Shown here: positions 12,968 through 60,824 of the stretch, one piece after another
How positions within the stretch are numbered: position 1 is the stretch's first letter
Layout: each line of letters begins with the position of its first letter
Assembly (NCBI GenBank): GCA_963762565.1
Contig: CAVXLD010000007.1
Location: forward strand, 32,001-96,000
Direction: 5' to 3'
DNA: 64,000 nt
Source: an uncultured Verrucomicrobiae bacterium
Lineage (GTDB): Bacteria; Verrucomicrobiota; Verrucomicrobiia; Chthoniobacterales; JAFAMB01
Made by a program: the position numbers and the translations under genes
The notes under the pieces: generated by a model
Told to the model about the DNA's origin: nothing
Databases searched by the model: none
What the model saw: only the letters and a program-made list of their open reading frames with translations

Positions 12968-13094
12968 GCTTGGGTAGACAAATGCTTACTCGGCGTCGGG
13001 AAACGGCTAACTTTTCGCTCGATCAGAAAATATTAACTCTGGCGGGTATCTGGTTAACATATCGAGCGCCGGTAGGAGTTCACTCTTTGCCACA

Positions 13095-22083: not shown

Positions 22084-22205
22084 GCAGCGTGGTTCATGAA
22101 AAACGGTTCAAATCGAGAATGCGGATTCCGAATATTGAACCGCTGCCGGCCGTAAAATCCAGAAAGTGGTCGTTCTACCGCTCCGCGGATGTTACAACGA
22201 GATTC

Positions 22206-36064: not shown

Positions 36065-37090
36065 TTATGGAGCTTTGTCCGAAAGACGAGCGCCCAGTTC
36101 CGGGAAGTATTGCTTCGTCAACTGAATCCAAACCGGATCGTACTCCCATGGGACAACTTTGGTTTTGTCCAGGATTGTATCTTTGGTCACAGGGATGACC
36201 GGAAGCATAATCTGCTGATTCAGTTTCTTGGATTCGCCGGATACATATTGGTTCAAGGCTAGTAAAGCAACGACCCCTTCCCATCCGGGCGAACTGCTGA
36301 TCGTGTAATTCAGCTCACCGGATTGAACCAGTGGAATTCCCACGGGAGAGCCGTTCTGGGCGATAACGACATATTGGTCGAGCATTCCCTGAGTTTTAAG
36401 GTAACGAATGACGGCGGCAGCCATGTCTTCGTTCATGATCCAGAGGATGTCGAACTTCGTGCCGGATTGAACAAGATCCTGAGCCTGAGTCACAGCAACG
36501 GCGGGGTTGTACTTTCCGTCTCGGACTGCGACGATCTCGTTTTTGCCGAGTTCCTTCATGCGATCCTTCATTGCCCCGGTAATCATTTGAACCGGCAGAT
36601 GTTCAAGAAGCCCCGTGATCAGGGCGACCTTCTTACCGGGGAAATGTTCCGCGATATAGTCGGCATAATTTTTGCCCATCGCTTTCCAGTCAAAATCCAC
36701 TGCTGCGACAATATCGTTGCCGCTTGCCAAGGCCTGTCCGCAGTTGTCGACGGTCACCAGAGGGATCCCGGCCACTTTGCACTTCTTGGCAGCGGTAATA
36801 GCTCCCTGCTGGTTAAACGAAAAGATCGCCATTCCGTCGACTCCTTGTGTGATTAGAGAATCGATGTTCGAAACCTCTTTCTGCACGTCGTAATCGGAAT
36901 TCAGGACGACCGTTTTAATACCTAACATTTTGGCGGCCAGCACAAAGCCGTCGACATCCCGCTTGTACCAAGTATCGGGACCAGGAGTGATGTATCCGAA
37001 CGTTAGTTCTTTGTTGGCGGCATAGTTCGCCGGTGGAAACCAGAGAACCATCGTTAAAATAAGAAGGAGGAGCGAAATGAACTTTTTCAT
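36065..37090 (-). CDS. Sugar ABC transporter substrate-binding protein
   Basis: Signal peptide, periplasmic binding-protein pattern, first gene of the operon. Confidence 0.92.
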   Translation of the reverse strand: MKKFISLLLLILTMVLWFPPANYAANKELTFGYITPGPDTWYKRDVDGFVLAAKMLGIKTVVLNSDYDVQKEVSNIDSLITQGVDGMAIFSFNQQGAITAAKKCKVAGIPLVTVDNCGQALASGNDIVAAVDFDWKAMGKNYADYIAEHFPGKKVALITGLLEHLPVQMITGAMKDRMKELGKNEIVAVRDGKYNPAVAVTQAQDLVQSGTKFDILWIMNEDMAAAVIRYLKTQGMLDQYVVIAQNGSPVGIPLVQSGELNYTISSSPGWEGVVALLALNQYVSGESKKLNQQIMLPVIPVTKDTILDKTKVVPWEYDPVWIQLTKQYFPELGARLSDKAP

Positions 37091-37559
37091 TGTGCAAGCT
37101 GTCCAGGCGGTTTGAGGGGAGAATCAGATAGTTGCTCTTGAACTGACCGACGGTTCTCGCGAAGCCGGTCCAAAGGGGAAAAGCTAGATTTCTCATAGCG
37201 GACCAGTCGGCCGATTGTCAAACGATTTCAGCTGCGCCGGGATCGCAAAGCAACGCAGACAAAAGCGTGATCCTAAGGGAATCGATACGCTGTCGAGCGC
37301 CTCCGCGACTTGGTTCGATTTGATGACAGGACGGCAACAGAGATCGAGGTGGGAGACACAGCGGTTTATTCTTGGCTTGCCGGTGAACGAGACCAGCGAA
37401 ACCGGAACGCATCATCCCTAGCTAGAGAGGTAGCCATCAACCCTTTGTTGCCGACTGATAAGACAATCGCAAAGCGGGGACTCCGCTTTCCGAAATGGAG
37501 GTCACTTCTGACGGTGGTCTGGAGCCAGAGCCTCCAAAGCTCACCGATTGTTAATTGCC

Positions 37560-38070
37560 GATTGCTGATTAACATCCACTGCCTATGTCCCGTTCGCACT
37601 TCCTATTCCCGCGGCGGTTTCAATTTCGCTCTTTCTGATCGCTCCCCTGGTTCGAGGATTTTGGGAAATCCCGTTGTCGTTGTTTGCGGCAGGTTGGATT
37701 TGCCAAGTGCTTGGACACCTCATCGAAGGTAAGCCATCGGAATTCCTCAAAGACTGGCGGTTTCTGTTGGTCGAACTACCCCGAGCCGGTTTCTGTGATC
37801 CGCCTCTCGATCTTCCAGAGCCGGATCGATTTGGCGTCATCTATTTTGGTTCATCGCTCCGGCTTTGCTTCTTCGAGCGGGTGCTACGAGATCGCAGAAA
37901 CGGCCGGTTAGGCGATCTTCCGATGCCTTTCGCCGAGTTCGAACAATTGACTTGTGCGGAAATAACGACCGCCCGGCAACTGAACCTCGTCGATCTCCGC
38001 AGTGACTGTCTGGTTAAATAGGCGCCCCGACCGACGCCATTCGAGCATTGAATCACTGCTTGGGACAGTA
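37560..38070 (+). pseudogene. Fused remnants: DUF962-like membrane protein (to about 37772) and RES-domain protein
   Basis: GWICQVLGHLIEGKPSEFLKDWRFLLV, then DRFGVIYFGSSLRLCFFERVLRD...LNLVDLR; another DUF962 piece at about 48640-48700. Confidence 0.6.
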
Positions 38071-38247
38071 CTCAGTGCCTGTCATGAGAATTCTCACTGC
38101 CAGCGCACAAATCAAACGCGAACGGTAGCGTCTGGATCGATATCTGATCTTAGGTCTGCGCGCGACTAGACGTTAGTTTACACTGGCTAACAGAAGCTGC
38201 CATGTTTCACTCTTGCCCGCCACAACGGCGCATGATATTTTTATCAT

Positions 38248-38499
38248 GTGAAAGCGACGATTACTGAGCGAGGTCAAGTCTCTATTCCTGCGCAAATCCG
38301 GCGCGAAATGCACCTCCAGCCCGGCCAGATTGTGATCTTTGAGAAAATCTCTGAAAAAGAGTGCCGCCTGATTATTGAGCCCCGGCCGGTCAGAAAACCG
38401 AACCCGATGGCGGCGCTCGGTTTCGCGCAGCGCCACGGGCTGCCGGCAAAGACCACTGCGGAATGGATGCGCCTCTTGCGCGAAGGAGAAAGGGACTGA
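38248..38499 (+). CDS. vapB: AbrB/MazE-family antitoxin
   Basis: ITERGQVSIPAQIRR; TGATG overlap with the PIN gene. Confidence 0.9.
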   Translation: MKATITERGQVSIPAQIRREMHLQPGQIVIFEKISEKECRLIIEPRPVRKPNPMAALGFAQRHGLPAKTTAEWMRLLREGERD

Positions 38500-38897
38500 T
38501 GGCCTGGGTGGTCGACACCTCAGTTCTCTTAGATATCCATATGCAGGATCCAACCTTTGGCCGGCGTTCCGCGCAGTGCCTTGCCCGTTATCTGCGGAAT
38601 GGGTTGGTGGCTTGCCCAATCAGTTACATTGAGATTGCTCCGGCATTTTCCAGTCAAGTGGGGCTTCAGATAGAATTTCTTCAGCAAGTTGGCGTGCAAT
38701 GGCGGGAGCCTTGGACTTGGTCAGATACCGAAGCTGCCCACAGGCTTTGGGGACAATACGTGGAGAAAAAGCGTGCCGGTAAGACTGGACGCCGGCCCGT
38801 CGCGGATGTGTTGATCGAGGCGTTCGCCCAGCGCTTCGATGGCTTGATCACGCGAAATCCCAAGGACTTTGCATCGGTAAGATGCATTGCTCCATGA
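38499..38897 (+). CDS. vapC: PIN-domain toxin
   Basis: VDTSVL, YIE, ADVLI, ITRNPKDF. Confidence 0.92.
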   Translation: MAWVVDTSVLLDIHMQDPTFGRRSAQCLARYLRNGLVACPISYIEIAPAFSSQVGLQIEFLQQVGVQWREPWTWSDTEAAHRLWGQYVEKKRAGKTGRRPVADVLIEAFAQRFDGLITRNPKDFASVRCIAP

Positions 38898-39222
38898 GCT
38901 TCAGATGATAAGCCTGATCGAATCCTTCTTTAAGCGCATTGCCCTTCTTGAAACAGCCGGCGCCTTCTCCGGGTCGTCACTAGCCCCAGGCCGCTCAGGG
39001 ATTCGCAACGAGTCCAAATCGAGCTGGCGTGGTTCAGAACCGGAGCCAAGGTGGTTTCGGTTGTATCGGTCCCTGATCTGCTCGGGATGGGGTTTGCGGC
39101 GAGCCCGTTCAGCCCAAATTTCGATTTTCGGAGTTTGCCCTTCCGCGCCGCCCGGAGCTAGAGCGAAGAGAATCTATTTTAGGTTCGCATTCGCAGCACT
39201 CAGGATGCTATGAATTGGTTGC

Positions 39223-39558
39223 ATGCTCTCACGGACAGAGCGAATTGACGAATTTCACCTCAAGCTCACCCGCACCGAAAAGGAACGGTATGAGGAGTTC
39301 CTGAAAACCGAGGAGGCAGAGCTCCTGCTGGAGATGCATCAATATTTCGCTGAGGCGAAAGGTCAGGCCGGCGGGATCAGGTTCGACAATGCTAGTCTCT
39401 GGTCGAAGATCGAAAACCGAGTGAGTGTCTGGTTCGCGGAGGTTTGTGCAGACAGGAATCAAAACCAAAACCTGATTCGGCGGTCAAAGGAAGCGATCTT
39501 GCACCGAATGAGAATTCTGTTGGCCAAGACAATCAGGGAGTCGCTTCGCAGGAAGTAG
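39223..39558 (+). CDS. Hypothetical helical protein (111 aa)
   Basis: ORF with protein-like composition only. Confidence 0.55.
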   Translation: MLSRTERIDEFHLKLTRTEKERYEEFLKTEEAELLLEMHQYFAEAKGQAGGIRFDNASLWSKIENRVSVWFAEVCADRNQNQNLIRRSKEAILHRMRILLAKTIRESLRRK

Positions 39559-39899
39559 CTTCGATATGGAGTACCAATGGCGGCGGTGTCGGAAGCGATT
39601 GTGGTAGTGAATCTGCCGGCCCAGAGCAGAACGCCAAGGGTATGGCACTGCGCTCGGGGAAAGCGTGGCAGGGAAGTAAATCGGTGGGTAAACGATTAGT
39701 GGGGTACGCGGTCTTCACGGCTCAATAGAAAGGCATTCTCGCTATGAATGCCGTGCGGGAAGGGAAAGTCAGGGGCAGTCAATCTAATCGCGACCGTTTT
39801 TGGTACACTGATCGACGATATTCTTTCGATCCCAGGAGCGTGAGCGGTCGTCATTTTTGGATCAATTCTTGATCGATCAAGCACTGCGCGACCCGAGGA

Positions 39900-40075
39900 C
39901 GGAATGGGCTGGGGGTCACCTGCTCAGTCGAGTCGTCGCCGGTAAGAAACCGCGGTGGTTGCTTGTTAAAATAAGAGACGAAAAAGCCGACTCGCGCCAA
40001 ATTTTATCAAAAAACGAAAGCAAATCGGCACTAAGCGGGCGGACGATGCGACAAATCAGAGAGGAAGAAAGATAG
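39900..40075 (+). pseudogene. LigD phosphoesterase-module C-terminal remnant
   Basis: WLLVKIRDEKAD...SALSGRTMRQI. Confidence 0.55.
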
Positions 40076-40213
40076 TCAGCAAAAAGCTGCACAGAATCTC
40101 CGGCGAAGGGTGCTTGAGAATGCCGTCCGATTACCCGGCACTTAGCGACGTGCGGCATCCTTCGATTTAGGAATGTGCTCGCCCGAGGCCGCGTGCGATG
40201 GTTTGATGCGCTT

Positions 40214-40423
40214 ATGAGTGACCACATCTACAAAAAGATTGAGCTGGTCGGTTCTTCTCCAAACGGCATCGAAGACGCAGTGAACAACGCGATCACGCGA
40301 GCTGGCAAGACGATCCGAAATATGAAGTGGTTTGAGGTCGCTGAGGTGCGCGGCCACCTCGAAAATAACAAGGTTGCGGACTGGCAGGTGACAGTGAAGG
40401 TCGGCTTCACTCTGGATACCTGA
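40214..40423 (+). CDS. Dodecin (flavin-binding protein)
   Basis: [10 protein letters not shown]...WFEVAEVRG...WQVTVKVGF. Confidence 0.95.
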
Positions 40424-41190
40424 TAAGAGTGGGACCGCTGCCGGCAGGCTGCGAGCACGGCAAATGCCGATCGGCCCAGGAAACGGAAATTTAGGACGCT
40501 CAGGCGTAATCTAAATAATCGATTATGCCCTGCGTACGCCGGAAGGGAATCGCGAAGCGTTGCAACGGAACAAATTCTACTTGCCGCAGCAATTGCAACC
40601 AAAACGTGGCTTTTCTGCGATCTAAGAGAAGGTCCGTTTTAACGGCCGAAGGATATGAGAGCTCTTTGGAAAGAAAGCATTGGCTTCGGCCTGGTTAACA
40701 TCCTTGTCATGCAAACACGTCGTGACGGTTGCTATTGACGGACCGACCAGTGCTTTTTTCTCCAAGACCACGCTCGCACGACTCAATTCGAACCCTGCTC
40801 AGTTCGGAGAGTCCGCCGCTTCCTCGTCCGATCCAGCGGGCCTTTCCGAATGATGACAACTAGAGAGAACCTGACACGGCCGGCGAGGGCTCTACGCTCT
40901 CGCTGGCCTTTGGTCCAGACTTAACAGAATGATTGTCCGCAGAATTCGAGCCGTTGAACCGCCAAAAAATCGCACAGGACACGAAGAAAACAGGGCAGGA
41001 GTTGAACGTTCGAAGCACTGCGACCCCGATGCTGACAGCACTGAAATCGAGACCGTACGCAACGGGGATCAAAACGATCAAGAGTGTGGGCTAAATCGGC
41101 TTAGGCGAATCTTCCCGCGTTCTCCACGGCCCTGAGAAAGAGCGTGATATTCCAAGCCAGCCGCCTTTACTCGAGATCAATGACAGCAAG

Positions 41191-41224
41191 CGGGACCAGT
41201 GAGGTTTTCACCCCACTGGTCCGG
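41191..41224. terminator. Stem-loop, possible terminator
   Basis: ggaccagtg ... cactggtcc inverted repeat. Confidence 0.4.
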
Positions 41225-41601
41225 TTACTTAGCATCACACATCAGAAAAGCCGCTTATGACCTTGGGAGCAGGCTTGTCTGACATAATAGGTTCGATGGC
41301 CGCCTATCTACTAGTCGTTTTACCGTCGGAGTTTAGAGCGTCTTGTAAATGGAGGAGCCCGGCAAAACGATTACGCCTCACCGGGCCCGGTTTTCCTCAA
41401 GGAGCGAATTGGAAAGCCGGGACTGCCAGCGGAGCAGTGACGGCTTCCCTATCCATAGTTCGATGGACAAGCGCAAGATGGTTTGGCGAAACGGTGGTTA
41501 TATGCTTCAGGAATCGAACAGTAAGCGGTCTAGCTCGCGCTTGATGCGGGAACGGGACCAGGTTTGACCATAAATAAACCCAGTATCAGGCTACAGGTAC
41601 A

Positions 41602-41898
41602 ATGGCTGAATCCATTTATCTTGTAACGGTCGGCGTGAATGAAGAACTGGCGCAAATCCGGTCTAATCGCTTTTTAGTTGAATTGCGATGTGATGAGCAC
41701 GCCAGATTGGACGTTGGCGACCGGGAGGCGATAGCCTGTGAAATCGCAAGGGAAGCCGCAAAGCAGCTTTACCCCATCGCTGGACCTATCGGCTACACGG
41801 AGGCGAACCGGCTGACCGAAAGTCTCCGCGCAGACCCCGGCAAAGAGGATTACACCGCGTCGTGCGGTGCGTGCAGAGTTTGGCTTGTACTGCCGTGA
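41602..41898 (+). CDS. Hypothetical protein (98 aa)
   Basis: ORF with plausible RBS; C-terminal CxxC. Confidence 0.55.
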   Translation: MAESIYLVTVGVNEELAQIRSNRFLVELRCDEHARLDVGDREAIACEIAREAAKQLYPIAGPIGYTEANRLTESLRADPGKEDYTASCGACRVWLVLP

Positions 41899-42037
41899 CG
41901 GTTAGGAACTAACCTCGCGCGCGGTCTAAACGCGTTTGACGATAATATGAAAGTAACCAAGCTTCTGTCTCAAGTGGCAGATCTTTTCTATCGGGCAACA
42001 GTGGGAGCCGACGAGTCACTGACTTGGTCCACTAGGC

Positions 42038-42162
42038 CTTAAGGTGCTGAAGGAAGACAAACGCGCGATTTTCAGCGCGCCGCGCACGCGCAACGCGCCG
42101 CCGATTTTCTCAACAGTCTCCAGCCGCAGCAGCACGCAGAGGAGGAGAGCGCAGCGGCTTGA
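42038..42162 (+). pseudogene. ardC: ArdC-like antirestriction protein C-terminal remnant
   Basis: LKVLKEDKRAIFSA / AHAQRAADFLNSLQP (one frameshift). Confidence 0.75.
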
Positions 42163-42178
42163 CCAGGTCCGGAAACAG

Positions 42179-42208
42179 AGCGGCCCGGCATCGAGCCGGG
42201 TCGCTTTT
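42179..42208 (+). terminator. Rho-independent terminator after the ardC remnant
   Basis: gcggcccggc-atcga-gccgggtcgc-tttt. Confidence 0.65.
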
Positions 42209-42224
42209 CCCTATCCAAATTTTC

Positions 42225-42762
42225 GGTACTGGTTCAGTTTGAGTGAGAGAAGCGGCTTGAGGAGCCGAGGCCAGCCGGTCCGGAAGGCCGCGCGCCACAC
42301 TTATGTAAGTGGGACGAAGTCGTATTCGCCGAATTGCAGAATTAAGAAAGTCGCCGCGGTCTCGCCACCGTTGGTAACAAGGTGCGGGCGCTGGGGCCGG
42401 ACTGAATAGGTTTCGCCCGGCGCGAGGCGCATCTCCTCCTTGGGGTCGCGCAAGAAAAGCCGTATTTGTCCCTCCAGAACGTAAAAGGTGTCTTGGACGT
42501 TTGAGTGACAGTGCCAAGGCACCTTTTGCGTCGGGTTGATCGTCCCCTCAAAGATCCGGAACCCTGGACGCGCTAGGTGATGCGCTTGTTTCTCAAGGTC
42601 GAGGAGATGGCTCGGGTCTTTTATGCCTTTCATACTATCGCTCCACGATATCACAGCGTGGCGGCTTCGCCATCACGTCGCGCAAAGCATACCTTCTTTT
42701 GGGAGGGATCATGGCAACTACCTAGCCCCTCGGCACTGATTCAGTCAAACTGAACCAGTACC
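42225..42762. mobile_element. Non-autonomous IS-like element with passenger gene
   Basis: 22-bp TIR (21/22 match) GGTACTGGTTCAGTTTGAGTGA; 8-bp direct repeat AAATTTTC at 42217-42224 and 42763-42770. Confidence 0.9.
42301..42633 (-). CDS. Cupin-domain protein
   Basis: PWHCHSNVQDTFYVLEG...LAPGETYSV...PHLVTN. Confidence 0.9.
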   Translation of the reverse strand: MKGIKDPSHLLDLEKQAHHLARPGFRIFEGTINPTQKVPWHCHSNVQDTFYVLEGQIRLFLRDPKEEMRLAPGETYSVRPQRPHLVTNGGETAATFLILQFGEYDFVPLT

Positions 42763-42797
42763 AAATTTTCCGGGGCTCTGCCCCGGCCAGGGGTTAA

Positions 42798-43142
42798 TCA
42801 ACCCCTGACAACCCCGCGCTTACTTCCCTTCCGCGTTTCAGCTTCGTCGGCGAGGCACTGTGGGAGTGTCACTTTCGCCTGTCCGCCGTCGCCGCCAGGC
42901 GTTGCTGGCTTCGCTTTCGCCTCTGTTTTCCCGGCCGCCGTTGCCGGCTTCTTGTGATGGGTCCGTTTCGGCTTCGCGGAATTCGCGCGGTAGCCGAGTT
43001 TCGCAAGCTTCTCATCGAAACTCTTGATCGCAGCTTCGCGCTTGCGCAGCAGATCGTCGATGACGGCCTGCTTGCGCTCCTCTACCGATTTCAGGTCCGA
43101 AAGGACTTTCTCAACATCGTCATTTGGTTTTTCTTCTGGCAT
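42798..43142 (-). CDS. Small coiled-coil/basic protein, possibly nucleoid-associated
   Basis: N-terminal coiled coil ending KLAKLGY, Lys/Ala-rich tail. Confidence 0.6.
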   Translation of the reverse strand: MPEEKPNDDVEKVLSDLKSVEERKQAVIDDLLRKREAAIKSFDEKLAKLGYRANSAKPKRTHHKKPATAAGKTEAKAKPATPGGDGGQAKVTLPQCLADEAETRKGSKRGVVRG

Positions 43143-43154
43143 AGCGCCCCAAAT

Positions 43155-43545
43155 CTATCGGCCCGGCACCGGCGCGTCGGGATCATGGCCGGCGAACCGC
43201 TCGAAGCCGCCGACTATGTACTTCACTATCCCCAGCGACCATTGCACCGCTTCGCCCGCGATCAGCGCGATTGCCTTCACCATCAAGGCAAGCTCCAACG
43301 CGTCGGCAAGCCCGGCCTTGTGTCCCAGCGACCCAATCGGAAGCCCGCCGTAATATACAAAGCAGGCCATCCCGCCTAAAAAAATCGTTCTTTCAACAAG
43401 CCGCGCCGCACGGCCCAGCTCCAGCACCTTCGGCAACAGAAAGAAATTCCCGAGGCCAGGCCAGCCCTTCCGCAGAACCTTGTTAAACGTGAACGAATTA
43501 TTCGGGTCTTCGCGCAGCCACGCCAGAGCCCTCGAAAGCATCATA
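43155..43545 (-). CDS. Hypothetical membrane protein
   Basis: ORF directly upstream of and co-oriented with 42798-43142; two hydrophobic stretches; start uncertain. Confidence 0.5.
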
Positions 43546-44083
43546 ATTCGCCTTCCCTCTCCAGACGGATCGCGAAGCCTCATCTTACTTCAAGTTTGCA
43601 GAAATCGGTGAGCGCCGCGCGCGCGTTCCTCGCCCATTGACAGCCCCGCCCAGCCGCCGAAAGAAGCTAGGAAAACCAGTAATCAAAAATTAGCCTCCCC
43701 TAACACTACCCTACCTAACCCCTTTTATGTATGGTTGGGAACTTCCGACTTCGGTCTGTTACCAGAGCTCCCACGCCTATTTGATGTGCTTGGAGGCGAT
43801 TGCTGGACGGTTTAGCGGTTTCTCAATCAGCGTCGCCCAATTTGGAGGGTTGACACCGCGCTATCGAGACTGAAAACGCGGTAAGATCAGCCAGGTCGTG
43901 GCTGCGGCCGAGAACGGAGCCGGCGCCGTCTCCTGATCGTGACTTGCCAGTCACCGCCCAACGCTAGCACAAATTGTCGCAAATCATCTAGGCGCCACCG
44001 TCCTTTCCTTGAAAGCGCGGTTAAAAACCTGCTAAAACGGTAAGTCCGGCCAACAAATAACAAACTCTGTCCATCAATCCCGC

Positions 44084-46420
44084 ATGTCGCCACGACCTGC
44101 GATCTTCATCTCGGCTGTCAGCTGCGAGCTGAGAAGCGCGCGGCAGTTGGTGGCCAACACGCTGACCTTCCTGGGTTACGAGCCGGAGTGGCAGGACATC
44201 TTTGGTACCGAAGAGGGCGATCTGCGTGCGATACTGCGCCGTCGGATCGACTCCTGTAAAGGGGTGGTGCAATTGGTAGGAAAATGCTACGGAGCCGAGC
44301 CGCCGAGCATCGACGAACAATTCGGCGGCGTCAGTTACACGCAATACGAGGCGCTCTACGCCAGCAGCAAAGGAAAGAAGGTCTGGTTCCTGTTTCTAGA
44401 TGAAAGTTTTCCTAGCGACCCGCATGAAGAAGAAGGCGAGGAAAAAGAGAAGCTACAGAGCGCGTACCGCGCCCGGCTGAAGGCTGACGTTCATCTTTAC
44501 CATCCACTCGGCAGCAGGGAAGGCCTTGAAGCCAGCGTGCTCAAACTGCGCGATGACCTCACCCGGCTCCGGCGCGGGGTAAGGCGATGGGCCGCTCTGG
44601 TTGCTGTGCTGCTTGTCCTGATCTTCGCTCTGAGCATCTGGCTCCTGCGAGGCCAGCAGGCTCTCCAGGAAAAATTCGACAAGCTGCAGCAGGGCGTCAA
44701 TTCGTTTGCGGAAGTACAAAACAAAGTCCGCCGGGACCAGGCCGGCCAGAAGCCTGAGGAAATCGAGCAGCGCACCTACGAGGTGTTGGGTAAGCAGCTC
44801 GGGATCGACGCTGCCACGCTCAAGGAACAACTGCCGCGTTTCGCCGCAGAACTGAAGAAATCACCTAACGCCACTACTTATGAGCGAGCGAACGCCGCTT
44901 ACGTGGCAAAGGATTACAATGAGGCCGAACGGTTGGCGCTCGCTGCCGCGGCCGAAGCTCAGCGCTCCAGCCCCGCGAAGAACGCGGAAGCGGTCGAAGC
45001 CTTTGAGCTGGCGGGATGGGCAGCCGAGAAGCGGATCGAATACGCCGATGCACTAAAGCGGTTGCACGACGCCGAGGCGCTCACCGACGTCACCCGCGAT
45101 CCTCTGGAGTGGGCCCGTGTGCAGTTCGCAATTGCCTGGGTGCTGATCGGTAAAGGTCAGTACAATGACGCCGAGAGCATCTTACTTAAAGTGCTGAAGG
45201 AGCGCGAACCCGCTCTGGGCCCCGAGCATCCTGACACGCTAAACACGCGCAACGCTCTGGCAAAGGAACTCTATTTCAAAGGTAAGTATGCTGAGGCTGA
45301 GGCGGAGTGTCGCGCCGTGCTGAAGGTTCAGGAAAAGGTGCTCGGCCCCGAGCATCCTGACACGCTAAGCACGCGTACCAATCTGGCGCTCGCCCTTGAT
45401 GGTCAATGCAAGTATGCCGAGGCTGAAGCGGAGGACCGCGTGGTGATCAAGCTCAAAGAGAAAGTGCTCGGCCCCGAGCATCCTGAAACGCTAGGAACGC
45501 GGATCATTCTGGTACTCGCGCTTGATAACGAAGGCAAGTATGCCGAGGCTGAAGCGCAGGGCCGCGCGGTGCTCAAGCTCGAAGAAAAGGTGCTCGGCCC
45601 CGAGCATCCTAACACGCTCGAGCTGCGCAACTTTCTGGCAGACGCGCTCGGTGGCGAAGGCAAGTATACCGAAGCTGAAGCGGAATCTCGCACGGTGATC
45701 AAGCTCGAAGAAAAAGTACTTGGCCTCGAGAATCCTATCACGCTAGGGATGCACAGCAGTCTGGCGGACGCGCTTAATGGCCAAGGGAAGTACGCCGATG
45801 CCGAAGCGGAGTATCGCTCCGTGATCAAGCTTGAAGAAAAAGTGCTTGGCCCCGAGCATGCTTCGACGTTAAACACGCGCGCCAGTCTGCCGGACGCGCT
45901 TGAACACGAAGGCAAATATGCTGAGGCTGAAGCGGAGTGTCGCGCCGTGATTAAGCTCGAAGAAAAGGTGCTCGGCCCTGAGGATCGTCTCACGCTAGAC
46001 ACGCGCACCAGCCTGGCAGACGCGCTTGATCACCAATGCAAGGATGCCGAGGCTGAAGCGGAGTGTCGTGCCGTGCTCAAGCTCGAAGAAAAAGCGCTCG
46101 GCCCCGAGCATCCTGACACGCTAACTACGCGCCACTATCTGGCAAACGCGCTTGAACACGAAGGCAAGTATGCCGAGGCGGAAGCGGAGTATCGCGCCGT
46201 GCTGAAGCTCAGAGAAAAGGTGCTCGGTCCCGAACATCCGGGCACGCTAAGCACTTGCTTTCGTCTGGCTCGTTGTTTGCGCGATGAGGATTCTAACGGC
46301 CAAGCCAGGGAACTTGCACAGCGGGCAGCGGACGGAGCGAGCAAGGTTTTGGGACCAGAACACCCGGATACGAAGAAATACGAGCAGCTCCTGAAAGAAC
46401 TGGTGGCAAAAGAGGACTAG
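44084..46420 (+). CDS. DUF4062 - TM - coiled coil - TPR (42-aa repeats) protein, paralog 1
   Basis: IFISAVS..ELRSAR, VGKCYG, SYTQYEA; TM WAALVAVLLVLIFALSIWLL; 8 core LGPEHP repeats plus a terminal repeat. Confidence 0.9.
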   Translation: MSPRPAIFISAVSCELRSARQLVANTLTFLGYEPEWQDIFGTEEGDLRAILRRRIDSCKGVVQLVGKCYGAEPPSIDEQFGGVSYTQYEALYASSKGKKVWFLFLDESFPSDPHEEEGEEKEKLQSAYRARLKADVHLYHPLGSREGLEASVLKLRDDLTRLRRGVRRWAALVAVLLVLIFALSIWLLRGQQALQEKFDKLQQGVNSFAEVQNKVRRDQAGQKPEEIEQRTYEVLGKQLGIDAATLKEQLPRFAAELKKSPNATTYERANAAYVAKDYNEAERLALAAAAEAQRSSPAKNAEAVEAFELAGWAAEKRIEYADALKRLHDAEALTDVTRDPLEWARVQFAIAWVLIGKGQYNDAESILLKVLKEREPALGPEHPDTLNTRNALAKELYFKGKYAEAEAECRAVLKVQEKVLGPEHPDTLSTRTNLALALDGQCKYAEAEAEDRVVIKLKEKVLGPEHPETLGTRIILVLALDNEGKYAEAEAQGRAVLKLEEKVLGPEHPNTLELRNFLADALGGEGKYTEAEAESRTVIKLEEKVLGLENPITLGMHSSLADALNGQGKYADAEAEYRSVIKLEEKVLGPEHASTLNTRASLPDALEHEGKYAEAEAECRAVIKLEEKVLGPEDRLTLDTRTSLADALDHQCKDAEAEAECRAVLKLEEKALGPEHPDTLTTRHYLANALEHEGKYAEAEAEYRAVLKLREKVLGPEHPGTLSTCFRLARCLRDEDSNGQARELAQRAADGASKVLGPEHPDTKKYEQLLKELVAKED

Positions 46421-46564
46421 TTAGATCAGATCCCCCGGCGCTCATTGATTCTATCAATGTGTCTTTACGATAAAGCGCTATCGAAAATGTGGGTCAGCAA
46501 TCACAAGACCATTTCCATAATATAGAGCAGAGCTGGCTGCTCTAACCCGCGAGTTTGAACCGAC

Positions 46565-46690
46565 GTTGGCTGTTTTTTGCGTTGCTCACTCCTCAAGGAT
46601 CAATTCAGATATGCCGTTCGCGCCTTGAAAAACAGCCAACTGATCCGGCCGCTGCCGGGCGAAAGCTATGTTATTTATTGGACAGGACAC
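46565..46690 (+). mobile_element. Right half of the 62605-62895 MITE family
   Basis: gttggctgttttt...aaaaacagccaac arm plus TIR ...ggacaggacac followed by TAG. Confidence 0.85.
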
Positions 46691-46691
46691 T

Positions 46692-47228
46692 AGACCCGAT
46701 CCCAACACCTACTGGGTTGTCCCCGGTAAGCTGTTAGCCCGCGAATATCCGGGTGCCCGCGATCTGGAAGAGGCGCGCAGCCGCCTGAGAAGGTTTCTTG
46801 CGGCCGGAGTCCGTCATTTCATCGACCTGACCGAGGTCGGCGAGCTCACTCCCTACGCCGAATTACTGACGGAAGAAGCGGGCTCTAGAACCACTTACGA
46901 GCGCTTTCCCATTCGCGATGTGAGGTGCCGGAAGAACCGAAAACCATGGCAGACATTATTGGGGCCATCGATCGCGCAATGGCAGAAGGTGGGGATCACC
47001 TACGTCCATTGTTGGGGCGGAGTCGGCCGTACCGGACTCGCCGTCGCATGTTGGTTGCAGGATCGCGGACAGACACCCGATGAGGCATTAACAGACCTCG
47101 CCGATAAATGGCGCTCGTGCGCAAAATCTAAGCGGATGCCGAGCTCACCTGAAACCGCCGAGCAAGTGAGGTGGGTCAAGGAATGGCCTCTTCATCGGTC
47201 GAAGCTGCATCTCCAAAATGACCCGTGA
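46692..47228 (+). pseudogene. Dual-specificity/tyrosine phosphatase, 5' end abutting a MITE, with two compensating indels
   Basis: VHCWGGVGRTG (CX5R), PETAEQ; the 31483 copy gives the expected frame RDVSVPDEPKTM. Confidence 0.85.
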
Positions 47229-54788: not shown

Positions 54789-55796
54789 ATGAGTGAACGA
54801 AATTCCATCAGCCGACGGAAAGCGATGCGCGGACTCGGAGCTGGCCTGATTGCAGCCGCCGCTTCGCGAGGTTTCGCAGCCGAACCAACGGCCGCGGAGG
54901 ATTCATCGCTGCAGGCGAAACTCCAAGACCCGGTCGGCAAGTATCCGAAACCACCCTTTAAGAGCCAGTCACAGCCGTGGCCTGGTCTGGCAAGTAAGAT
55001 GGATCCACGGCCCGACCATGGCGAGGAAAGTTACAAGGGTTCAGGTCGTTTAAGGGGCCGTAAGGCGCTAATCACAGGAGGGGACTCGGGGATGGGACGT
55101 GCGGCGGCGATCGCATTTGCGCGTGAAGGAGCTGACGTGGCGATCAATTATTATCCGACCGAAGAGCCAGATGCGCAGGAAGTCATTGCCTTGATTCAAT
55201 CGGCGGGTCAAAAGGGGATTCCTCTACCAGGAGATTTAAGAGAAGAATCCTTCTGCCAAAAGCTGGTGCTTGACGCGTCCAATGCTTTAGGCGGCTTGGA
55301 TATTTTGGTCAGTAATGCCGCGCGGCAGCAATCGCACGAGTCGTTGTTAGATATCTCGACCGAGCAGTTCGACTGGACGATAAAGACGAATATCTATGCG
55401 CCCTTTTGGATTATTAAGGCTGCGCTGCCGCACATGCCGCCTGGGTCGGTAATCATTGGGACGACCTCCGTGCAGGCCTACAATCCATCGCCGGATCTTT
55501 ATGACTATGCGCAAACGAAGGCAGCCACGATGAACTATGTTAAATCGCTGGCAAAGCAGCTTGCGCCGAAAGGCATTCGGGTAAACGGCGTTGCCCCCGG
55601 TCCAATCTGGACTCCCTTGCAGGTGAGTGGCGGTGATAGTCAGGAGAAACTTCAAAACTTCGGGAGCCAAACGCCATTGGGCCGGCCCGGTCAGCCGGCA
55701 GAATTGGCATCTATGTATGTGCAGCTCGCTGCCAATGATGCCAGTTATGCTACCGGGCAGATATATGGGTCAGCAGGTGGATCCGGCCAACCTTGA
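54789..55796 (+). CDS. SDR oxidoreductase (YghA-like) with twin-arginine-like leader
   Basis: TGGDSGMGRA, YAQTK, VNGVAPGPIWT; SRRKAM leader. Confidence 0.93.
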   Translation: MSERNSISRRKAMRGLGAGLIAAAASRGFAAEPTAAEDSSLQAKLQDPVGKYPKPPFKSQSQPWPGLASKMDPRPDHGEESYKGSGRLRGRKALITGGDSGMGRAAAIAFAREGADVAINYYPTEEPDAQEVIALIQSAGQKGIPLPGDLREESFCQKLVLDASNALGGLDILVSNAARQQSHESLLDISTEQFDWTIKTNIYAPFWIIKAALPHMPPGSVIIGTTSVQAYNPSPDLYDYAQTKAATMNYVKSLAKQLAPKGIRVNGVAPGPIWTPLQVSGGDSQEKLQNFGSQTPLGRPGQPAELASMYVQLAANDASYATGQIYGSAGGSGQP

Positions 55797-56625: not shown

Positions 56626-57543
56626 ATGAAAATCTTGATAACGCCAGAGGGTCAGCCGGTGTTTTGGGATGGGAAAGGGAATTTCAGCTTAGAGAAGAAT
56701 GATGACTTTGATATGGCGGCACACTTTCAAAAAGTGCTTCCTGGTGATGATCCAGAAGCATTCAGGCAAAAGGCAGCAGAACAGCTCGGGTTGGACGTTC
56801 AATACGAGGAGTACTAATTTATGGCTGGTCTGTTTTACGTCGTTGACCTGACCCGAGATGAGCGAATGGCGCGTAATCCGCGACTCGTCGAGAAGTTTCT
56901 GGTCGAGCTTTGCCAAGAGCATTGTCCCGACAATTGGCAGGAAGTTGACCGTGAAGCTTTAGCAATGGCCACGGCGCTAACAGCTCTCGAGCATCGTTAT
57001 TCTCCCGAAGTGTTGGGCGGAACGATTGGGCATCGGGAAGCTAGCAGGTATAAAGGCATCAATCCGACTAACCTTGGGCCAGCGAGTTTTGACCTGGACT
57101 GTGGGTGTCGAGCTTGGAAGATTTAGGCTTGTTTCGACAAATGCTTACTCGGCATGGCGGAACGGCTAACTTTTCAGCTCGATCAGAAAATGTTAACTCT
57201 TGCGGGTATCTGGTTAACATATCGAGCGCAGGTAAGATTCACTCCTTTGCCACAATGATACCTCTCCCCGCCAAAGTAACTAAGATTCAGTTGGACTTCA
57301 GTAACAGATTCTCGGCTCGAGCCGAGGGCGTCGTACCGGAGAAGATAGTCTACATCGAGCTGTTCGACCTCCCCGGTGGAGTCCATGCAACCAACTTGTC
57401 GGATGTAGCGCCGGGGAAACACGAGTTCTTACTCCACGGTGACGGAAAACCGCCATTCAAAGTAGGTGATACTCTTTCCGCGAGAGGGTTCTCGCAAGAC
57501 GAACTGCCTGATTGATTTCAGCAGACGCGCGCGGGAAGATGGA
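56626..57543 (+). repeat. Three-ORF module, copy 2 (ORF A 56626-56817, B 56821-57126, C ending 57515)
   Basis: Direct repeat of 12468-13384; all three ORFs intact. Confidence 0.92.
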
Positions 57544-57834
57544 GGATATCGCCTTTTTGAGTCGATGGTTGAGGACTCTTCCTTGGCAAGCCCGATGGCA
57601 TCGAGCAGTTTCTGCTAGTTTCCAGAGGAACCTCCGAGAATGCCCGTAACAATCCCTAAGGATCCGGTATCGTCCGTTTCGATCTTAGTAACAACCGTCA
57701 GCCGCATACATTCAGACCGCCAGGCGAGACTGTGCCGAGCGAATCGGCGGCGCGGCTAGGTTGGCGCGTCCGGGTTGGGTGCAGCGCTGAGCTTGCGATT
57801 TGTCAAGCTGCTTATTACCGCCAGTTTGGTTACC

Positions 57835-58166
57835 GATCGTTCGCCGATATCCCCCGGAATCAGGACCGCTTTACGGCCGGCCTCGGTAACCAGGCGTTCC
57901 GTTTCTTTGGCATCCTGATGTTCCGAAAGGTAAGAGATAGCAACATCCGCTCCCTTTCTAGCGAAAGCGATGGCGACCGCCCGGCCGATCCCGCTATCAG
58001 CTCCGGTGACCAGCGCAGGGAGGCCTTGAAGCTGGCCACTGCCCTGGTAGCTCGACTCTCCATGATCGACTGTTGGGTTCATTTCCTCCTCCTGTCCTGG
58101 AGGAGATTGCTGGTGGTCGGAATACGGCGGCCGTTGATAAACTTTGCGAGGATCCTGCGTTTTCAT
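57835..58166 (-). pseudogene. 3'-truncated SDR oxidoreductase (YghA/YdaD-like)
   Basis: DHGESSYQGSG, TGADSGIGRA; similarity lost after PGDIGE; no YxxxK. Confidence 0.85.
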
Positions 58167-58314
58167 TGATATCCTTTTCACTGATGGTGTCCTTTGCGTT
58201 CGTCCGTAGAGCTGCGGGGGGCTGCGTGTGGTTACGTCGAGCTGCAGTCTGGTGCCATCCTTAACCGATCGGTAGCTAGCAGACCAAGACACCTGCGAGT
58301 AGCGAAATACTGTT

Positions 58315-58497
58315 ATGAACAAACTACAATTCAAGGGCTCCTGGAATGAAGTTAAAGGCAAGCTCAAACAAAAGTATGCTCAGTTGACCGACGATGACCT
58401 TAAATATGCCGAGGGCAAGGAAGACGAACTCGTCGGAAGACTACAGAAGAAGCTCGGGAAAAGTGCCGAGGAAGTCCGCCAGATGCTGGAAGGTTAG
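58315..58497 (+). CDS. CsbD-family stress protein
   Basis: KGSWNEVKGKLKQKYAQLTDDDL...LVGRLQ. Confidence 0.93.
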   Translation: MNKLQFKGSWNEVKGKLKQKYAQLTDDDLKYAEGKEDELVGRLQKKLGKSAEEVRQMLEG

Positions 58498-58697: not shown

Positions 58698-60824
58698 CTA
58701 CCCACCTTTGGCGACCAGCTCTTGCTGAAGCTTCTCATATTTCTTAGTATCCGGGTGATCAGGCCCTAACATTTTGCGTGCTCCTTCTAGAGCCCGTTGC
58801 ACCAGCGTCGTTGCCTCCTGCAATTGACCTTCAGCACGCAAGCATAGCGCTAGACCAAAACAGGTCTTGAGCGTATCCAGATTCTCGGTGCCCAACACTT
58901 TTTCCCGGAGCTTGAGCACCTCGCGAAACTCCGTTTCGGCTTCGGTGTACTTATTCTGATGATAGAACGTTTCTGCTAGATCATCGCGTGTTAGGAGCGT
59001 GTCCGGATGCTCCGGACCCACCACTTTTTCCTGGAGCTTCAACACCGAAAGATATTCTCTCTCTGCTTCGGCATAATTCCCTTCATGGTCAAGGGCTTCT
59101 CCCAGAGCGGTACGGGTTTCCAGCGTAAAAAAATGTTCTGGTCCCAGGGCCTGCTCATCCAAATCGATCACGGCCCGATACTCGGTTTCAGCTTCAGTGT
59201 ACTTGCCCTCATGCACGAGCACGTTTCCTAGATCTGTGCGGGTGTTAAGCGTTTCAGGATTCCGTTCTCCCAGCGCTTTCTCTTCGAGCTTAATCACATC
59301 CCGATTCTCGGCTTCGGCTTCGGTATATTTCCCTTGGCTATCTAGCGCGTTGGCCAGATTGGTCCGGACTGCCAGCGTCTGCTGAGAGTCGGGTCCGGTA
59401 ATTTTCTCTTCAATCTTGACTAACCTGCGCTCCTCGGCTTCGGCCTCCGTATATTTTCCTTCATCATCCAGAACAGCGGCTAGATTGATCCGCGTTTCTA
59501 CGGCGTTCTTACTCTCGGCACCGGAAACTTTTTCATCCCGGGCAGCGAGCGTTTGAAAGGCCGCTTCCGCCTCCGCATCCTTCCCTTGCCGATAAAGTAC
59601 GGTTGCCAGGTAGTTGAGTGCAAACAATGTAGACTGGTGTTCGGAGCCAAGGGCGCCCTCCCGCTCTTTTAATGCTTCACGCAAGATCGGCTCGGCTTCC
59701 CGGTATTGGCCTTGGTTGAACAGAGCGTAGCCAATTTGGAATTGAACATCTGCCCATTCCAATCCATCACGTTTCCGGTCCGTCAACGCCTCGGCCGCTC
59801 GGAAATGTTTCAACTCGTCGGCATATTCAACTCGACTGTCAGCGGCCAATCCCGCTAGCGTCAACGCTTTAACTGCTCGAACATTGTCTGGAGGATTGGC
59901 GCTCCGAGCTTCATCGGCCGCTACTAACGCCAGGCGTTCAGCTTCATTGTAATCCTTATCTACGTAGGCGGCATTGGCCCGTTCATAGGTCGTTGCGTTT
60001 GGTGCTTTCTTTAACTGGGCGGCTAAGCGCGGAAGTTCTTCTTTTAGCACAGCCGGGTCTAACCCAAGCGTTTTTGCTAACTTGTCGTAGGTCAGCTGCT
60101 CAAGTTGCTTCGGGTTTTGACCCGGTTGTTCTTGCCTCAAATTATCTTGTACTTCGGCAAACGAACTAACCCCGCGTTGAAGTTTTTCAAACTTCGTTTC
60201 CAGAGCCTGCAAATGCTCATTGGTTTGCTTCTGTTGCTCGTTCGCATGCTGCTGGCTTTGCAATAGCCAAATACTCAACCCAACCGTTAGCACCAGTAAG
60301 GCGGCCACCGCCGTAGCCCAACGTCTGACTCCGCGCCGGAGTCGAGTAAGATCGTCGCGCAGCTTGAGGACGCTTGCTTCCAGGCCTTCCTTGCTCGTGA
60401 GGGGATGATAAAGATGGCTTTCCGATTGAAGCCGCGCCCGATAATCGCGCTGCAGCTTCTCCTGTTCTTCCGTCTCTTTTTCGTGCGCATCAACGGGGAA
60501 CTGGTCGTCCAGAAACAGATACCAAACTTTCTTTCCCTTGGTGATGGCGTAGAGCGCTTCGTATTGGGTGTAACTGACCCGGCCGAATTGCTCATCTGGG
60601 GTCGGCGGTTCGGCTCCATAACATTCACCGACCAATTGCAGCACTCCTTTGGAAGTGTCGACTCGCCGGCGGAGCATCGCTCGCAGATCGCCCTGTTCAG
60701 TGCCGAAGATATCCTGCCACTCCGGTTCGTAGCCGAGAAAAGTCAGTGTGTTTGCCACCAGCTGTCGAGCGCTTCTCAATTCCTTGCTGACAGCTGATAT
60801 GAAGATTACAGGGCGCGGCGACAT
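58698..60824 (-). CDS. DUF4062 - TM - coiled coil - TPR protein, paralog 2
   Basis: N-terminal domain highly similar to 44084-46420; 6 core 42-aa repeats plus a terminal repeat. Confidence 0.9.
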   Translation of the reverse strand: MSPRPVIFISAVSKELRSARQLVANTLTFLGYEPEWQDIFGTEQGDLRAMLRRRVDTSKGVLQLVGECYGAEPPTPDEQFGRVSYTQYEALYAITKGKKVWYLFLDDQFPVDAHEKETEEQEKLQRDYRARLQSESHLYHPLTSKEGLEASVLKLRDDLTRLRRGVRRWATAVAALLVLTVGLSIWLLQSQQHANEQQKQTNEHLQALETKFEKLQRGVSSFAEVQDNLRQEQPGQNPKQLEQLTYDKLAKTLGLDPAVLKEELPRLAAQLKKAPNATTYERANAAYVDKDYNEAERLALVAADEARSANPPDNVRAVKALTLAGLAADSRVEYADELKHFRAAEALTDRKRDGLEWADVQFQIGYALFNQGQYREAEPILREALKEREGALGSEHQSTLFALNYLATVLYRQGKDAEAEAAFQTLAARDEKVSGAESKNAVETRINLAAVLDDEGKYTEAEAEERRLVKIEEKITGPDSQQTLAVRTNLANALDSQGKYTEAEAENRDVIKLEEKALGERNPETLNTRTDLGNVLVHEGKYTEAETEYRAVIDLDEQALGPEHFFTLETRTALGEALDHEGNYAEAEREYLSVLKLQEKVVGPEHPDTLLTRDDLAETFYHQNKYTEAETEFREVLKLREKVLGTENLDTLKTCFGLALCLRAEGQLQEATTLVQRALEGARKMLGPDHPDTKKYEKLQQELVAKGG

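Follow-up and report, generated by a model that had tools for sequence, protein, structure and literature searches.

The DUF4062 domain (Pfam PF13271) was shown by Osinski et al. (10.64898/2026.05.01.722283) to be a TIR-like NADase, with KpSwz (catalytic residue E97) and human TEP1 (E1008) as examples. The domain was renamed NIR by Le Mouellic et al. (10.64898/2026.09.04.749371), who showed Glu-dependent depletion of NAD+ for PsAvs2, Vulcan and Vesta, and three motifs of Evangelion are described by Ibarra-Chavez et al. (10.64898/2026.06.25.731849), namely F11 (aromatic), a region termed acidic-SYT that contains E87, and Q/W/E. A DUF4062/NACHT/TPR protein is also the subject of the DUF4062 passage in PMC4452313. 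Here we analyze two paralogous genes in a 64,000-nucleotide stretch of DNA from an uncultured soil Verrucomicrobiae bacterium (positions 32,001 to 96,000 of contig CAVXLD010000007.1, assembly GCA_963762565.1; hereafter the window), the products of which join an N-terminal NIR head by a single transmembrane (TM) helix to an array of tetratricopeptide repeats (TPRs). From their sequences, we propose that both genes belong to a family of sensors in the Chthoniobacterales (Verrucomicrobiota) that would act as single components, cross the membrane once and operate without an NTPase switch.

Gene 1 was found to encode a protein of 778 residues (P0001) and gene 2, on the opposite strand, a protein of 708 residues (P0002) that is identical to P0001 at 422 of 693 aligned residues (61%), has two TPR units fewer and carries a 14-residue insertion within the helix that follows the membrane segment. 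An original prediction, made from the letters of this DNA, had described two such paralogs with a conserved N-terminal domain that includes SYTQYEA, a single TM segment preceded by RRGVRR, 42-residue TPRs (eight core units in gene 1) and no NTPase domain. All of these points were confirmed, with SYTQYEA at residues 84-90 of both proteins. The parts of the two genes are listed below by window coordinate, strand and evidence (ORF, open reading frame; AF2, AlphaFold2; KD19, 19-residue Kyte-Doolittle mean; TRF, Tandem Repeats Finder).

44084-46420, + strand: gene 1 (P0001), with head, TM helix, linker and TPR array (ORF, Pfam, AF2)
44093-44488, + strand: NIR (DUF4062) TIR-like domain, residues 4-135 (PF13271, AF2 N-domain, fold searches)
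44348-44350, + strand: codon of Glu89 (in SYTQYE), the putative catalytic residue (alignment with KpSwz E97A, conservation)
44492-44587, + strand: HLYHPL strand (137-142) and stalk helix (145-168) ending in RLRRGVRR, predicted to be cytoplasmic (AF2, conservation)
44588-44647, + strand: single predicted TM helix, residues 169-188 (KD19 of 2.97, flanking charges)
44648-45214, + strand: residues 189-377, with a long helix (or coiled coil) past the TM at 189-218, then the helical linker and a single degenerate TPR (AF2)
45215-46348, + strand: nine TPR units of 42 residues (126 nt), eight homogeneous and one divergent (TRF, anchors, per-column analysis)
46349-46420, + strand: C-terminal capping helix and stop codon (translation, AF2)
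58698-60824, - strand: gene 2 (P0002), paralog of the same architecture (ORF, Pfam, alignment)
60420-60824, - strand: gene 2 NIR domain (residues 1-135), with the Glu89 codon at 60558-60560 (PF13271 at 36.4 bits, motif position)
60261-60320, - strand: gene 2 predicted TM helix, residues 169-188 (KD19 of 2.29; Lys plus Arg 7 vs 1)
58701-59651, - strand: gene 2 TPR array with its cap, residues 392-708 (translation, repeat analysis)

Both proteins gave strong Pfam matches to TPR_10 and TPR_12 and sub-threshold matches to TPR_NPHP3, and no Pfam match to an NTPase family (NACHT/NB-ARC STAND) was detected in either. In the full-length AF2 model of P0001 (mean pLDDT of 86.7), the head is followed by the strand at 139-142, the helix at 145-218, a helical linker and helix-A/helix-B TPR pairs that extend to the C-terminus; residues 136-377 were thus modelled as helices, TM segment and TPR-like linker, with no STAND NTPase at the center of the protein.

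The head was examined by Pfam, structure prediction and fold search. PF13271 matched residues 7-93 of both proteins (37.6 bits in P0001 and 36.4 bits in P0002, cut-off 24.7), and an AF2 model of residues 1-168 (pLDDT of 87.2) displayed a beta-alpha pattern. When this model was searched by VIA-align, the roughly 26 top rows (Z of 11.7 to 9.1) were mostly TIR or nucleoside deoxyribosyltransferase (NDT) structures, including the TIR domain of SfSTING (Z of 11.7, rmsd of 3.0 over 119 aligned residues), TIRAP (11.4), TIR-1 (10.9), MilB (10.8) and the TIR domain of SARM1 (10.2), the last of which was ranked first by Foldseek (E of 3e-4). Chains of KpSwz and TEP1 were absent from the fold-search matches for the head, and both may postdate the fold library. 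Judged from the model, the head has a TIR/NDT-like fold of the flavodoxin type, and the original prediction's description of DUF4062 as a TIR/NDT-like domain that usually heads STAND NTPases agrees with this search and with the text of the 2026 preprints.

A candidate active site was located by comparison to KpSwz, the sole relative found by phmmer when residues 1-170 were searched against Protein Data Bank (PDB) sequences (10wc_A, E of 0.017, query residues 4-126). Here, SYTQYEALYA is matched to SFTEKAFDYA from the KpSwz E97A construct and the mutated Ala97 lies opposite E89, with the residue count of 10wc_A anchored on R18 and D71 as given in the text of Osinski et al. The conservation that had been expected of this Glu was borne out, as all 81 representatives in one alignment have E89, which is at least 90% conserved in two other alignments (37 and 63 rows), and an S-x-T-x-x-E motif was present in 142 of 150 representatives. 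Residues F8, S10, R20, G66, G70, S84 and E89 are all invariant or nearly so among sequences that are only 50% identical overall. The IFISA segment that holds F8 aligns with VFVSS of KpSwz, and F8 would be the equivalent of the aromatic F11 of Eva01 as the Evangelion paper describes it. Based on these sequence comparisons, the head of P0001 and P0002 is probably a NAD-destroying enzyme.

The membrane segment was identified as the one hydrophobic stretch of each protein (residues 169-188), with a KD19 of 2.97 in P0001 and 2.29 in P0002 compared to at most 1.01 for the best window elsewhere. In P0001, it consists of 20 consecutive apolar residues flanked by Trp and an Arg cluster, RLRRGVRR lies immediately N-terminal to it, and Lys plus Arg number 7 on its N-terminal vs 3 on its C-terminal side (7 vs 1 in P0002). 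To place these features within the family, we took the best 150 matches to residues 1-168, of which the 124 that had the motif and sufficient length were tested. A TM segment about 82 residues past the Glu was found in 113 of these 124 representatives (clustered at 50% identity) and in all 115 close homologs. Lys and Arg were more abundant in the N-terminal than the C-terminal flank of 109 of the 113 (equal in four, reversed in none) and, likewise, of 115 of 115 close homologs. Both the membrane segment and the positive-inside bias on which the original prediction relied are therefore family-wide. By AF2, a single unbroken helix (145-218) spans the stalk, the membrane and the post-membrane region, and the nearly invariant H137-L142 (HLYHPL), which contains the short strand 139-142, precedes it. 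Since the head is without a signal peptide, its substrate is cytoplasmic and only one helix spans the membrane, the C-terminal part would lie outside; we infer a type II topology with a cytoplasmic head and the C-terminal 520-590 residues (linker and TPRs) in the periplasm. Prediction of a two-copy complex of residues 1-215 scored 0.00 in both runs, a result that has no bearing either way on dimerization.

We next turned to the repeats, in which TRF detected a 126-nt period (8.2 copies, 77% matches, 45218-46254). Ten LG.E anchors, spaced exactly 42 residues apart from residue 378 onward, define an array in gene 1 of eight homogeneous units, one divergent unit and a cap. The scaffold had been called homogeneous at the DNA level; the 126-nt period stands, but the homogeneity is only moderate, with core units of gene 1 that are 71-83% identical in pairwise comparison. 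A higher-order repeat of 378 nt (three units) was considered and rejected as merely a multiple of 126, with lag-3 identity at 75.4% vs 78.0% for lag-1. The pentapeptides that had been noted as variable in the first helix (NTRNA, STRTN, GTRII, ELRNF, GMHSS, NTRAS, DTRTS and TTRHY) are real and occupy unit columns 10-14.

Where this variability falls on the TPR fold was determined from 593 units pooled from 120 homologs, in which the columns of highest entropy were 10, 17, 21, 20, 32 and 13. In the register of Pfam TPR_2 and TPR_8, column equals canonical TPR position plus 8 (residues 684-710 are profile positions 5-31), and these columns therefore correspond to canonical positions 2, 9, 13, 12, 24 and 5. 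In the text of Magliery and Regan (PMC1261162), variability is greatest at TPR positions 2, 5, 9, 12, 13, 33 and 34, which lie on the concave face, and the ligand of HOP is contacted by positions 2, 5, 6, 9, 12 and 13. Columns 10, 17, 21, 20 and 13 (canonical 2, 9, 13, 12 and 5) thus coincide with concave ligand positions; by AF2, the concave columns are all in helix A with a spacing of i, i+3/4 and i+7. This mapping of the variable positions to the canonical concave set (2, 5, 6, 9, 12 and 13), in line with the groove location that had been predicted, is based on the Pfam register and published TPR positions as opposed to measured geometry. The nearest solved TPR structures include the peptide-binding kinesin light chains (KLCs) KLC1/2 (26-29% identity, TM-score of at most 0.78), APPBP2 and OGT.

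The eight core units of P0001 also permitted an estimate of selection, as their synonymous divergence is unsaturated (pS of 0.341 over all columns, bootstrap 0.26-0.43). At the six canonical concave columns (10, 13, 14, 17, 20 and 21), pN was 0.553 (bootstrap 0.49-0.61), a level attained by 0 of 20000 random six-column sets, and several of these codons differ from unit to unit in their first two bases but keep a fixed third base. The per-site comparison across repeats gave a dN/dS for the concave columns of 2.5 against their own dS and 2.2 against the all-column dS vs 0.30 for all other columns, a contrast that is drawn from only six codon columns and non-independent pairs of units and that gene conversion, by homogenizing the scaffold, could have inflated. 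The arrays of the other four paralogs had pS values of 0.66-0.97, and dN/dS is not estimable in them because their synonymous sites are saturated. The P0001 array is recently amplified and in this respect unusual among the paralogs. Similarly, when P0001 was compared to P0005 and P0008, homologs of the same length that need not be its orthologs, identity was 90% in the NIR head, 83-85% in the TM and linker, 71% in the TPR scaffold columns and 11-15% in the six hypervariable columns as defined across the family. Taken together, these comparisons indicate that the concave TPR positions are hypervariable and, by the dN/dS measure, under positive selection in gene 1. Among the listed sequencing runs that contain this stretch, none is recorded as RNA. 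The gene is present in contigs from four runs of soil DNA, all of a single study, in which repeat-number variants were not seen, a result that says little about population variation; a contig of one run (X1, possibly the source sample) covers 45023-46600 with zero differences.

Further copies of the module were found across the genome, which has eight matches to residues 1-339 in all. Four NIR copies are intact: genes 1 and 2 of the window, plus two arranged in tandem at C1:10172 and C1:12766. Of two disrupted copies, which may be real pseudogenes or assembly indels, one (C1:1354732-1356882, + strand) is split inside the TPR array into ORFs of 561 and 165 residues, the second of which carries the remaining TPRs, and the other (C1:1160996-1162719, - strand) has a frameshift near head residue 60 and accounts for two of the eight matches. 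An IS200-like Y1 transposase ORF adjoins the latter copy. The last match (C3:942509-945646, - strand) encodes a protein of 1035 residues in which a Zn-ribbon and Pkinase take the place of the NIR head ahead of the TM, linker and TPRs, with a linker that is 49-57% identical (49% over residues 161-339). Upstream, it shares a 4-nt overlap with a gene of 255 residues that has a Sigma70_r2 match, and the two (L017:8510-12381) are a probable sigma-kinase sensor pair. Membrane Ser/Thr kinases of PVC bacteria are partnered with extracytoplasmic function (ECF) sigma factors.

Exchange of heads was further traced by a search with the linker alone (residues 196-345 against 5.8 billion proteins), which returned 351 matches. 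Among the best 120 of these 351, ten were complete or partial metagenomic proteins headed by a Zn-ribbon and Ser/Thr kinase, with linkers 74-82% identical to that of P0001, and those that seemed headless were N-terminally truncated fragments. In a quick maximum likelihood tree of 92 linker segments (150 columns), 10 of 11 kinase rows fell within a clade of 96% SH-aLRT support alongside 22 NIR rows, and the well-supported branches require at least three changes of head type. The module has thus switched its cytoplasmic output more than once, so that TM, linker and TPRs form a portable input unit, and this pattern of exchange supports the receptor reading. A Ser/Thr kinase head needs ATP and is therefore cytoplasmic; its presence on the same TM-linker-TPR chassis supports the head-in, TPR-out arrangement predicted for P0001.

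The extent of the family was estimated by a search of residues 1-168 against 1.84 billion representatives clustered at 50% identity, which gave 1637 matches at E of 1e-3 or below, 854 at 1e-10 or below and 302 at 1e-30 or below; the family thus has at least several hundred members. When 118 representatives of at least 330 residues were scanned for domain architecture, DUF4062 was matched in 113 and TPR_12 in 61, with pentapeptide repeats in five, DUF4384 and TIR_2 in three each, Sel1 in two and WD40 in one. Pentapeptide, Sel1, DUF4384 or WD40 domains lie C-terminal of the TM in these other members, and no NTPase appeared among the families listed for the 118 (for the second set of these, 25 of 70 families were listed). 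When a single genome of each species was scanned by pattern, 258 stretches were confirmed, and several genomes were multi-copy. The best 78 loci were all titled Verrucomicrobiota/Verrucomicrobia, Verrucomicrobiae, Chthoniobacterales or Spartobacteria save two (one Limisphaerales and one 'Lentisphaerae' record). In a sample of Chthoniobacterales, a match at E of 1e-30 or below was found in 28 of 201 genomes (27 of 200 without the unpublished genome G173), 22 of 160 high-quality genomes and 18 of 72 genera. Matches per genome ranged from 1 to 7 and were usually 1 or 2, with the maximum of 7 in the genome studied here and 4 in each of two others. Such a patchy distribution and variable copy number, together with the diversifying groove, fit the recognition of variable non-self ligands.

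We give even chances to a model in which P0001 and P0002 are one-component transmembrane sensors: a ligand in a periplasmic TPR groove would realign or cluster the stalk and TM helices, and the cytoplasmic NIR head would be activated as a NADase that depletes NAD+. By this model, a peptide or protein would bind the groove outside the cytoplasm, the stalk and TM helices would cluster or realign, and the heads would leave an autoinhibited arrangement for an active one, in keeping with what has been proposed for Swarozyc stalks. Hydrolysis of NAD+ into ADP-ribose plus nicotinamide would then lead to growth arrest or cell death. The ligands may be variable and non-self, for instance proteins from phages or competitors arriving in the periplasm, and sensing of envelope state is also possible. 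We infer the translocation of the C-terminal part, an active NADase head, activation driven by oligomerization, the nature of the ligand and an immune role. More tentatively, and as a possibility we would back less readily, the proteins may be transmembrane pattern-recognition receptors whose hypervariable periplasmic groove senses non-self proteins (toxins of competitors, or phage proteins of the tail or of ejection) before or during their passage of the envelope and switches on the NADase. They would then be a functional analog of Toll-like receptors (TLRs) in which the output is death by an enzyme, with heads that recombine between 'kill' and 'signal' outputs for one class of ligand.

In addition to the limits on dN/dS given above, the genomic setting, the loss of one head motif and the existence of soluble relatives weigh against the sensor that we propose, and each also favors a different explanation. 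With regard to setting, PADLOC gave no family for P0001 and, for P0002, just a TPR model of generic type, by use of a database (PADLOC-DB 2.0, 2023) that predates the DUF4062 papers, and the nearest defense-like genes are more than 18 kb away. Defense models gave only two generic matches (GlgB-like and subtilase) in 112 flanking ORFs of 11 related loci. The window neighbors encode DSP-PTPase, GYD, PCMT, two Hsp20, SDR, ArsM, ArsC and ECF sigma proteins. When 22 neighbors were searched by tblastn in the 78 related loci for a conserved partner gene, 20 queries were found in no locus, SDR in three and ArsM in one. De novo clustering of 912 flanking ORFs revealed recurrent neighbors confined to subsets of at most 33 loci (a PKD protein in 33, a TPR-S-cyclase in 18, DPP-IV in 17, a glyoxalase in 15 and a sigma-like gene in 13 of the 78), which look like the ordinary synteny of ortholog groups. 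With no conserved partner gene or defense context, the protein is therefore a stand-alone unit, and an immune-receptor role draws no support from surrounding defense genes.

The same setting suits a physiological sensor of envelope or environment, in which the TM-linker-TPR module that elsewhere serves a Ser/Thr kinase (co-transcribed with a sigma-70-like gene) would be coupled to a regulated NAD(P)+ hydrolase that would tune metabolism or dormancy, or make a signaling nucleotide, upon periplasmic cues. Along with the missing defense context, the ordinary character of the syntenic genes (PKD protein, glyoxalase and DPP-IV peptidase in 15-33 of 78 loci), the stress genes of the window (Hsp20 twice, PCMT and ArsM/ArsC) and the 4-nt overlap of the kinase paralog with a Sigma70_r2 gene are all consistent with this explanation. 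By contrast, groove positions that are nearly randomized between close homologs (11-15% identity) with a dN/dS above 1 are difficult to reconcile with it, as are a patchy distribution, variable copy number and frameshifts in two of six copies, traits seldom expected where a sensor reads a self ligand that is conserved. Moreover, all bacterial DUF4062 proteins tested to date are anti-phage according to the 2026 preprints. On balance, we consider a physiological sensor doubtful, if well worth keeping in view.

The loss of the head motif raises the prospect of a catalytically silent scaffold or adaptor, in which the NIR head would serve protein-protein assembly and organize a membrane complex, as the adaptor TIR domains of animals do. 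The Q-W-E residues of KpSwz align with L47-R48-A49 (EEQWEF to GDLRAI), such that Q/W/E is not kept, although in the text of the three preprints Q/W/E is nowhere stated to define the whole of PF13271. The human proteins NWD1, NWD2 and NPHP3, purified at full length, had no NADase activity in vitro in the text of Osinski et al. (10.64898/2026.05.01.722283); a conserved Glu is thus no guarantee of activity, and NPHP3 likewise has KLC-type TPRs, in keeping with the TPR_NPHP3 matches observed here. However, near invariance of E89, F8, S10, R20, G66, G70 and S84 at 50% overall identity speaks against a silent head, as does the family's own conserved motif, GDLR..LRR, at the Q/W/E site. We regard a silent scaffold as improbable.

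Soluble relatives bear on the membrane topology. A TM segment is lacking in 11 of the 124 testable representatives, and among the seven of these that were scanned individually, P0188, P0199 and P0240 are soluble proteins of the same head subfamily with NIR and TPR_10/12 domains; the same type of sensor therefore also works inside the cell, which tempers the claim of extracytoplasmic TPRs and links the family to Vulcan-type proteins. That P0001 is itself wholly cytoplasmic, a membrane-tethered, Vulcan-like intracellular sensor with its hydrophobic helix as a peripheral anchor or oligomerization helix, is very improbable in spite of these relatives and of the TPR_10/12 arrays typical of cytoplasmic STAND proteins, given the run of 20 apolar residues (KD19 of 2.97), the flanking Trp and Arg cluster, the family-wide charge bias, the shared design of kinase-headed and DUF4384-, Sel1- and pentapeptide-tailed versions, and the fact that both ends of the protein cannot share one side because there is a single segment, if this spans the membrane.

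The one-component transmembrane sensor is of interest for where it would detect its cue. To our knowledge, all bacterial NADase immune sensors characterized to date, including the DUF4062/NIR systems of 2026, detect infection in the cytoplasm. In the P0001-type design, a membrane helix and diversifying repeats, predicted to be extracytoplasmic, replace the NTPase switch or soluble sensor. If this is true, NAD+-depletion responses could be triggered from outside the cytoplasm, and the family would provide a simple model for the transmembrane activation of TIR-fold enzymes. That NADase and kinase heads have been interchanged is a natural experiment, which shows the TM-linker-TPR module to be a portable input device. 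Were the proteins to sense envelope state instead, hydrolysis of NAD+ would be tied to the everyday stress physiology of a soil phylum that is both abundant and difficult to culture.

Several other features of the window were recorded, where ORFs of at least 100 residues cover 70% of the whole. A DSP-PTPase of 186 residues (46668-47228, + strand) lies 248 nt 3' of gene 1 on the same strand, with Pfam matches to PTP-SAK and Tc-R-P and a sub-threshold match to PTP-NADK. The PTP-SAK, Tc-R-P and PTP-NADK families are linked to NAD/ADP-ribose conflict systems. No homolog of this DSP-PTPase was found in the 78 related loci, 10 of which encode a different PAP2+DSPc protein about 5 kb upstream. Some 18-24 kb upstream of gene 1 are a capP-like peptidase (20329-21132, + strand; PADLOC E of 1.5e-46), a WYL-domain protein (22089-23249, + strand; E of 6e-40) and a PDC-M35B-like ORF (25688-26131, + strand), and these may be a regulator pair of a defense locus. 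A Ser/Thr kinase of 328 residues (7619-8605, + strand) gave strong PADLOC matches to PD-T4-6 and mad6, which may merely reflect the generic kinase fold. A cassette of two ORFs (101 and 136 residues, no Pfam family) occurs at 56821-57515 (+ strand) and at about 12662-13352 with 91% protein identity, and a weaker relative of its first ORF (33% identity) is at 41602-41898, 2.2 kb upstream of gene 1. A truncated SDR fragment (57756-58367, - strand), which lies a short way downstream of gene 2 and has 49% identity over 123 residues to the intact SDR at 54789-55796, is likely a gene remnant. The region from 37000 to 44000 contains only short ORFs, mostly without family, among them a PIN-domain ORF (38463-38897) and a cupin (42301-42654).

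Compared to known systems, KpSwz (Osinski et al., 10.64898/2026.05.01.722283; PDB 10wc, 11cq and 11cv) shares with P0001 the catalytic-position Glu, its E97 aligning with E89, and, as far as its description in the text goes, the strand and helical stalk under its head resemble strand 139-142 and helix 145-218 of P0001; this stalk is proposed by Osinski et al. to transmit the sensor signal. KpSwz consists of DUF4062, helical stalk and a helix-turn-helix/winged AUX region that acts as an intracellular, portal-binding sensor, and it has no TM, whereas P0001 has a TM and a TPR sensor. The NIR-STAND-TPR 'NLR-like' proteins (PsAvs2 and human NPHP3, NWD1/2 and TEP1) have the NIR head in common with P0001 and P0002, and PsAvs2 and NPHP3 also have TPR sensors, but a STAND NTPase lies between head and sensor in the place that is taken by a TM helix in P0001 and P0002.

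The layout logic of animal TLRs, as presented in the text of PMC11350192, is alike in its extracytoplasmic solenoid, one TM and cytoplasmic TIR-fold domain. The Toll-like layout put forward in the original prediction accordingly holds for the repeats, the single TM and the TIR-fold head but not for their order, which is head, TM and repeats (type II), nor for the repeat class, which is TPR instead of leucine-rich repeat (LRR). TLRs are type I proteins with LRRs, a canonical TIR (PF01582/PF13676) and output through adaptors, whereas P0001 is predicted to be type II, with TPRs, DUF4062 and a probable enzymatic output; the likeness is thus best treated as analogy and not as homology of whole proteins. 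The membrane Hanks-type Ser/Thr kinases with C-terminal TPRs (C3:942509-945646 and P0274-P0286) have a homologous TM-linker-TPR module with a kinase output in place of NIR. A TM-TPR layout goes unmentioned in the three DUF4062 preprints as far as their text is concerned, where TPR occurs solely as an abbreviation in connection with Avs and NLR-like proteins, although such a clade could still be depicted in their figures or supplements. It is likewise unmentioned in the titles and abstract openings of the 12 papers listed among 15 matched by a full-text search for DUF4062.

The closest of the described systems is Vulcan, which, in the text of Le Mouellic et al. (10.64898/2026.09.04.749371), is like P0001 a single protein with an N-terminal NIR domain, a Glu at the catalytic position, a C-terminal alpha-solenoid and no STAND NTPase. 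Vulcan is soluble and has HEAT repeats fused directly to NIR, whereas P0001 and P0002 have 42-residue TPRs of the KLC type, a TM with a conserved linker and a sensor predicted to be extracytoplasmic; Vulcan is a phage defense protein, whereas P0001 and P0002 are putative NADases that lie outside any defense-island context. Thus, the family may be viewed as a variant of the NTPase-less NIR-repeat (Vulcan-like) proteins that has a TM and a predicted TPR ectodomain, and it is this variant that appears to be new.

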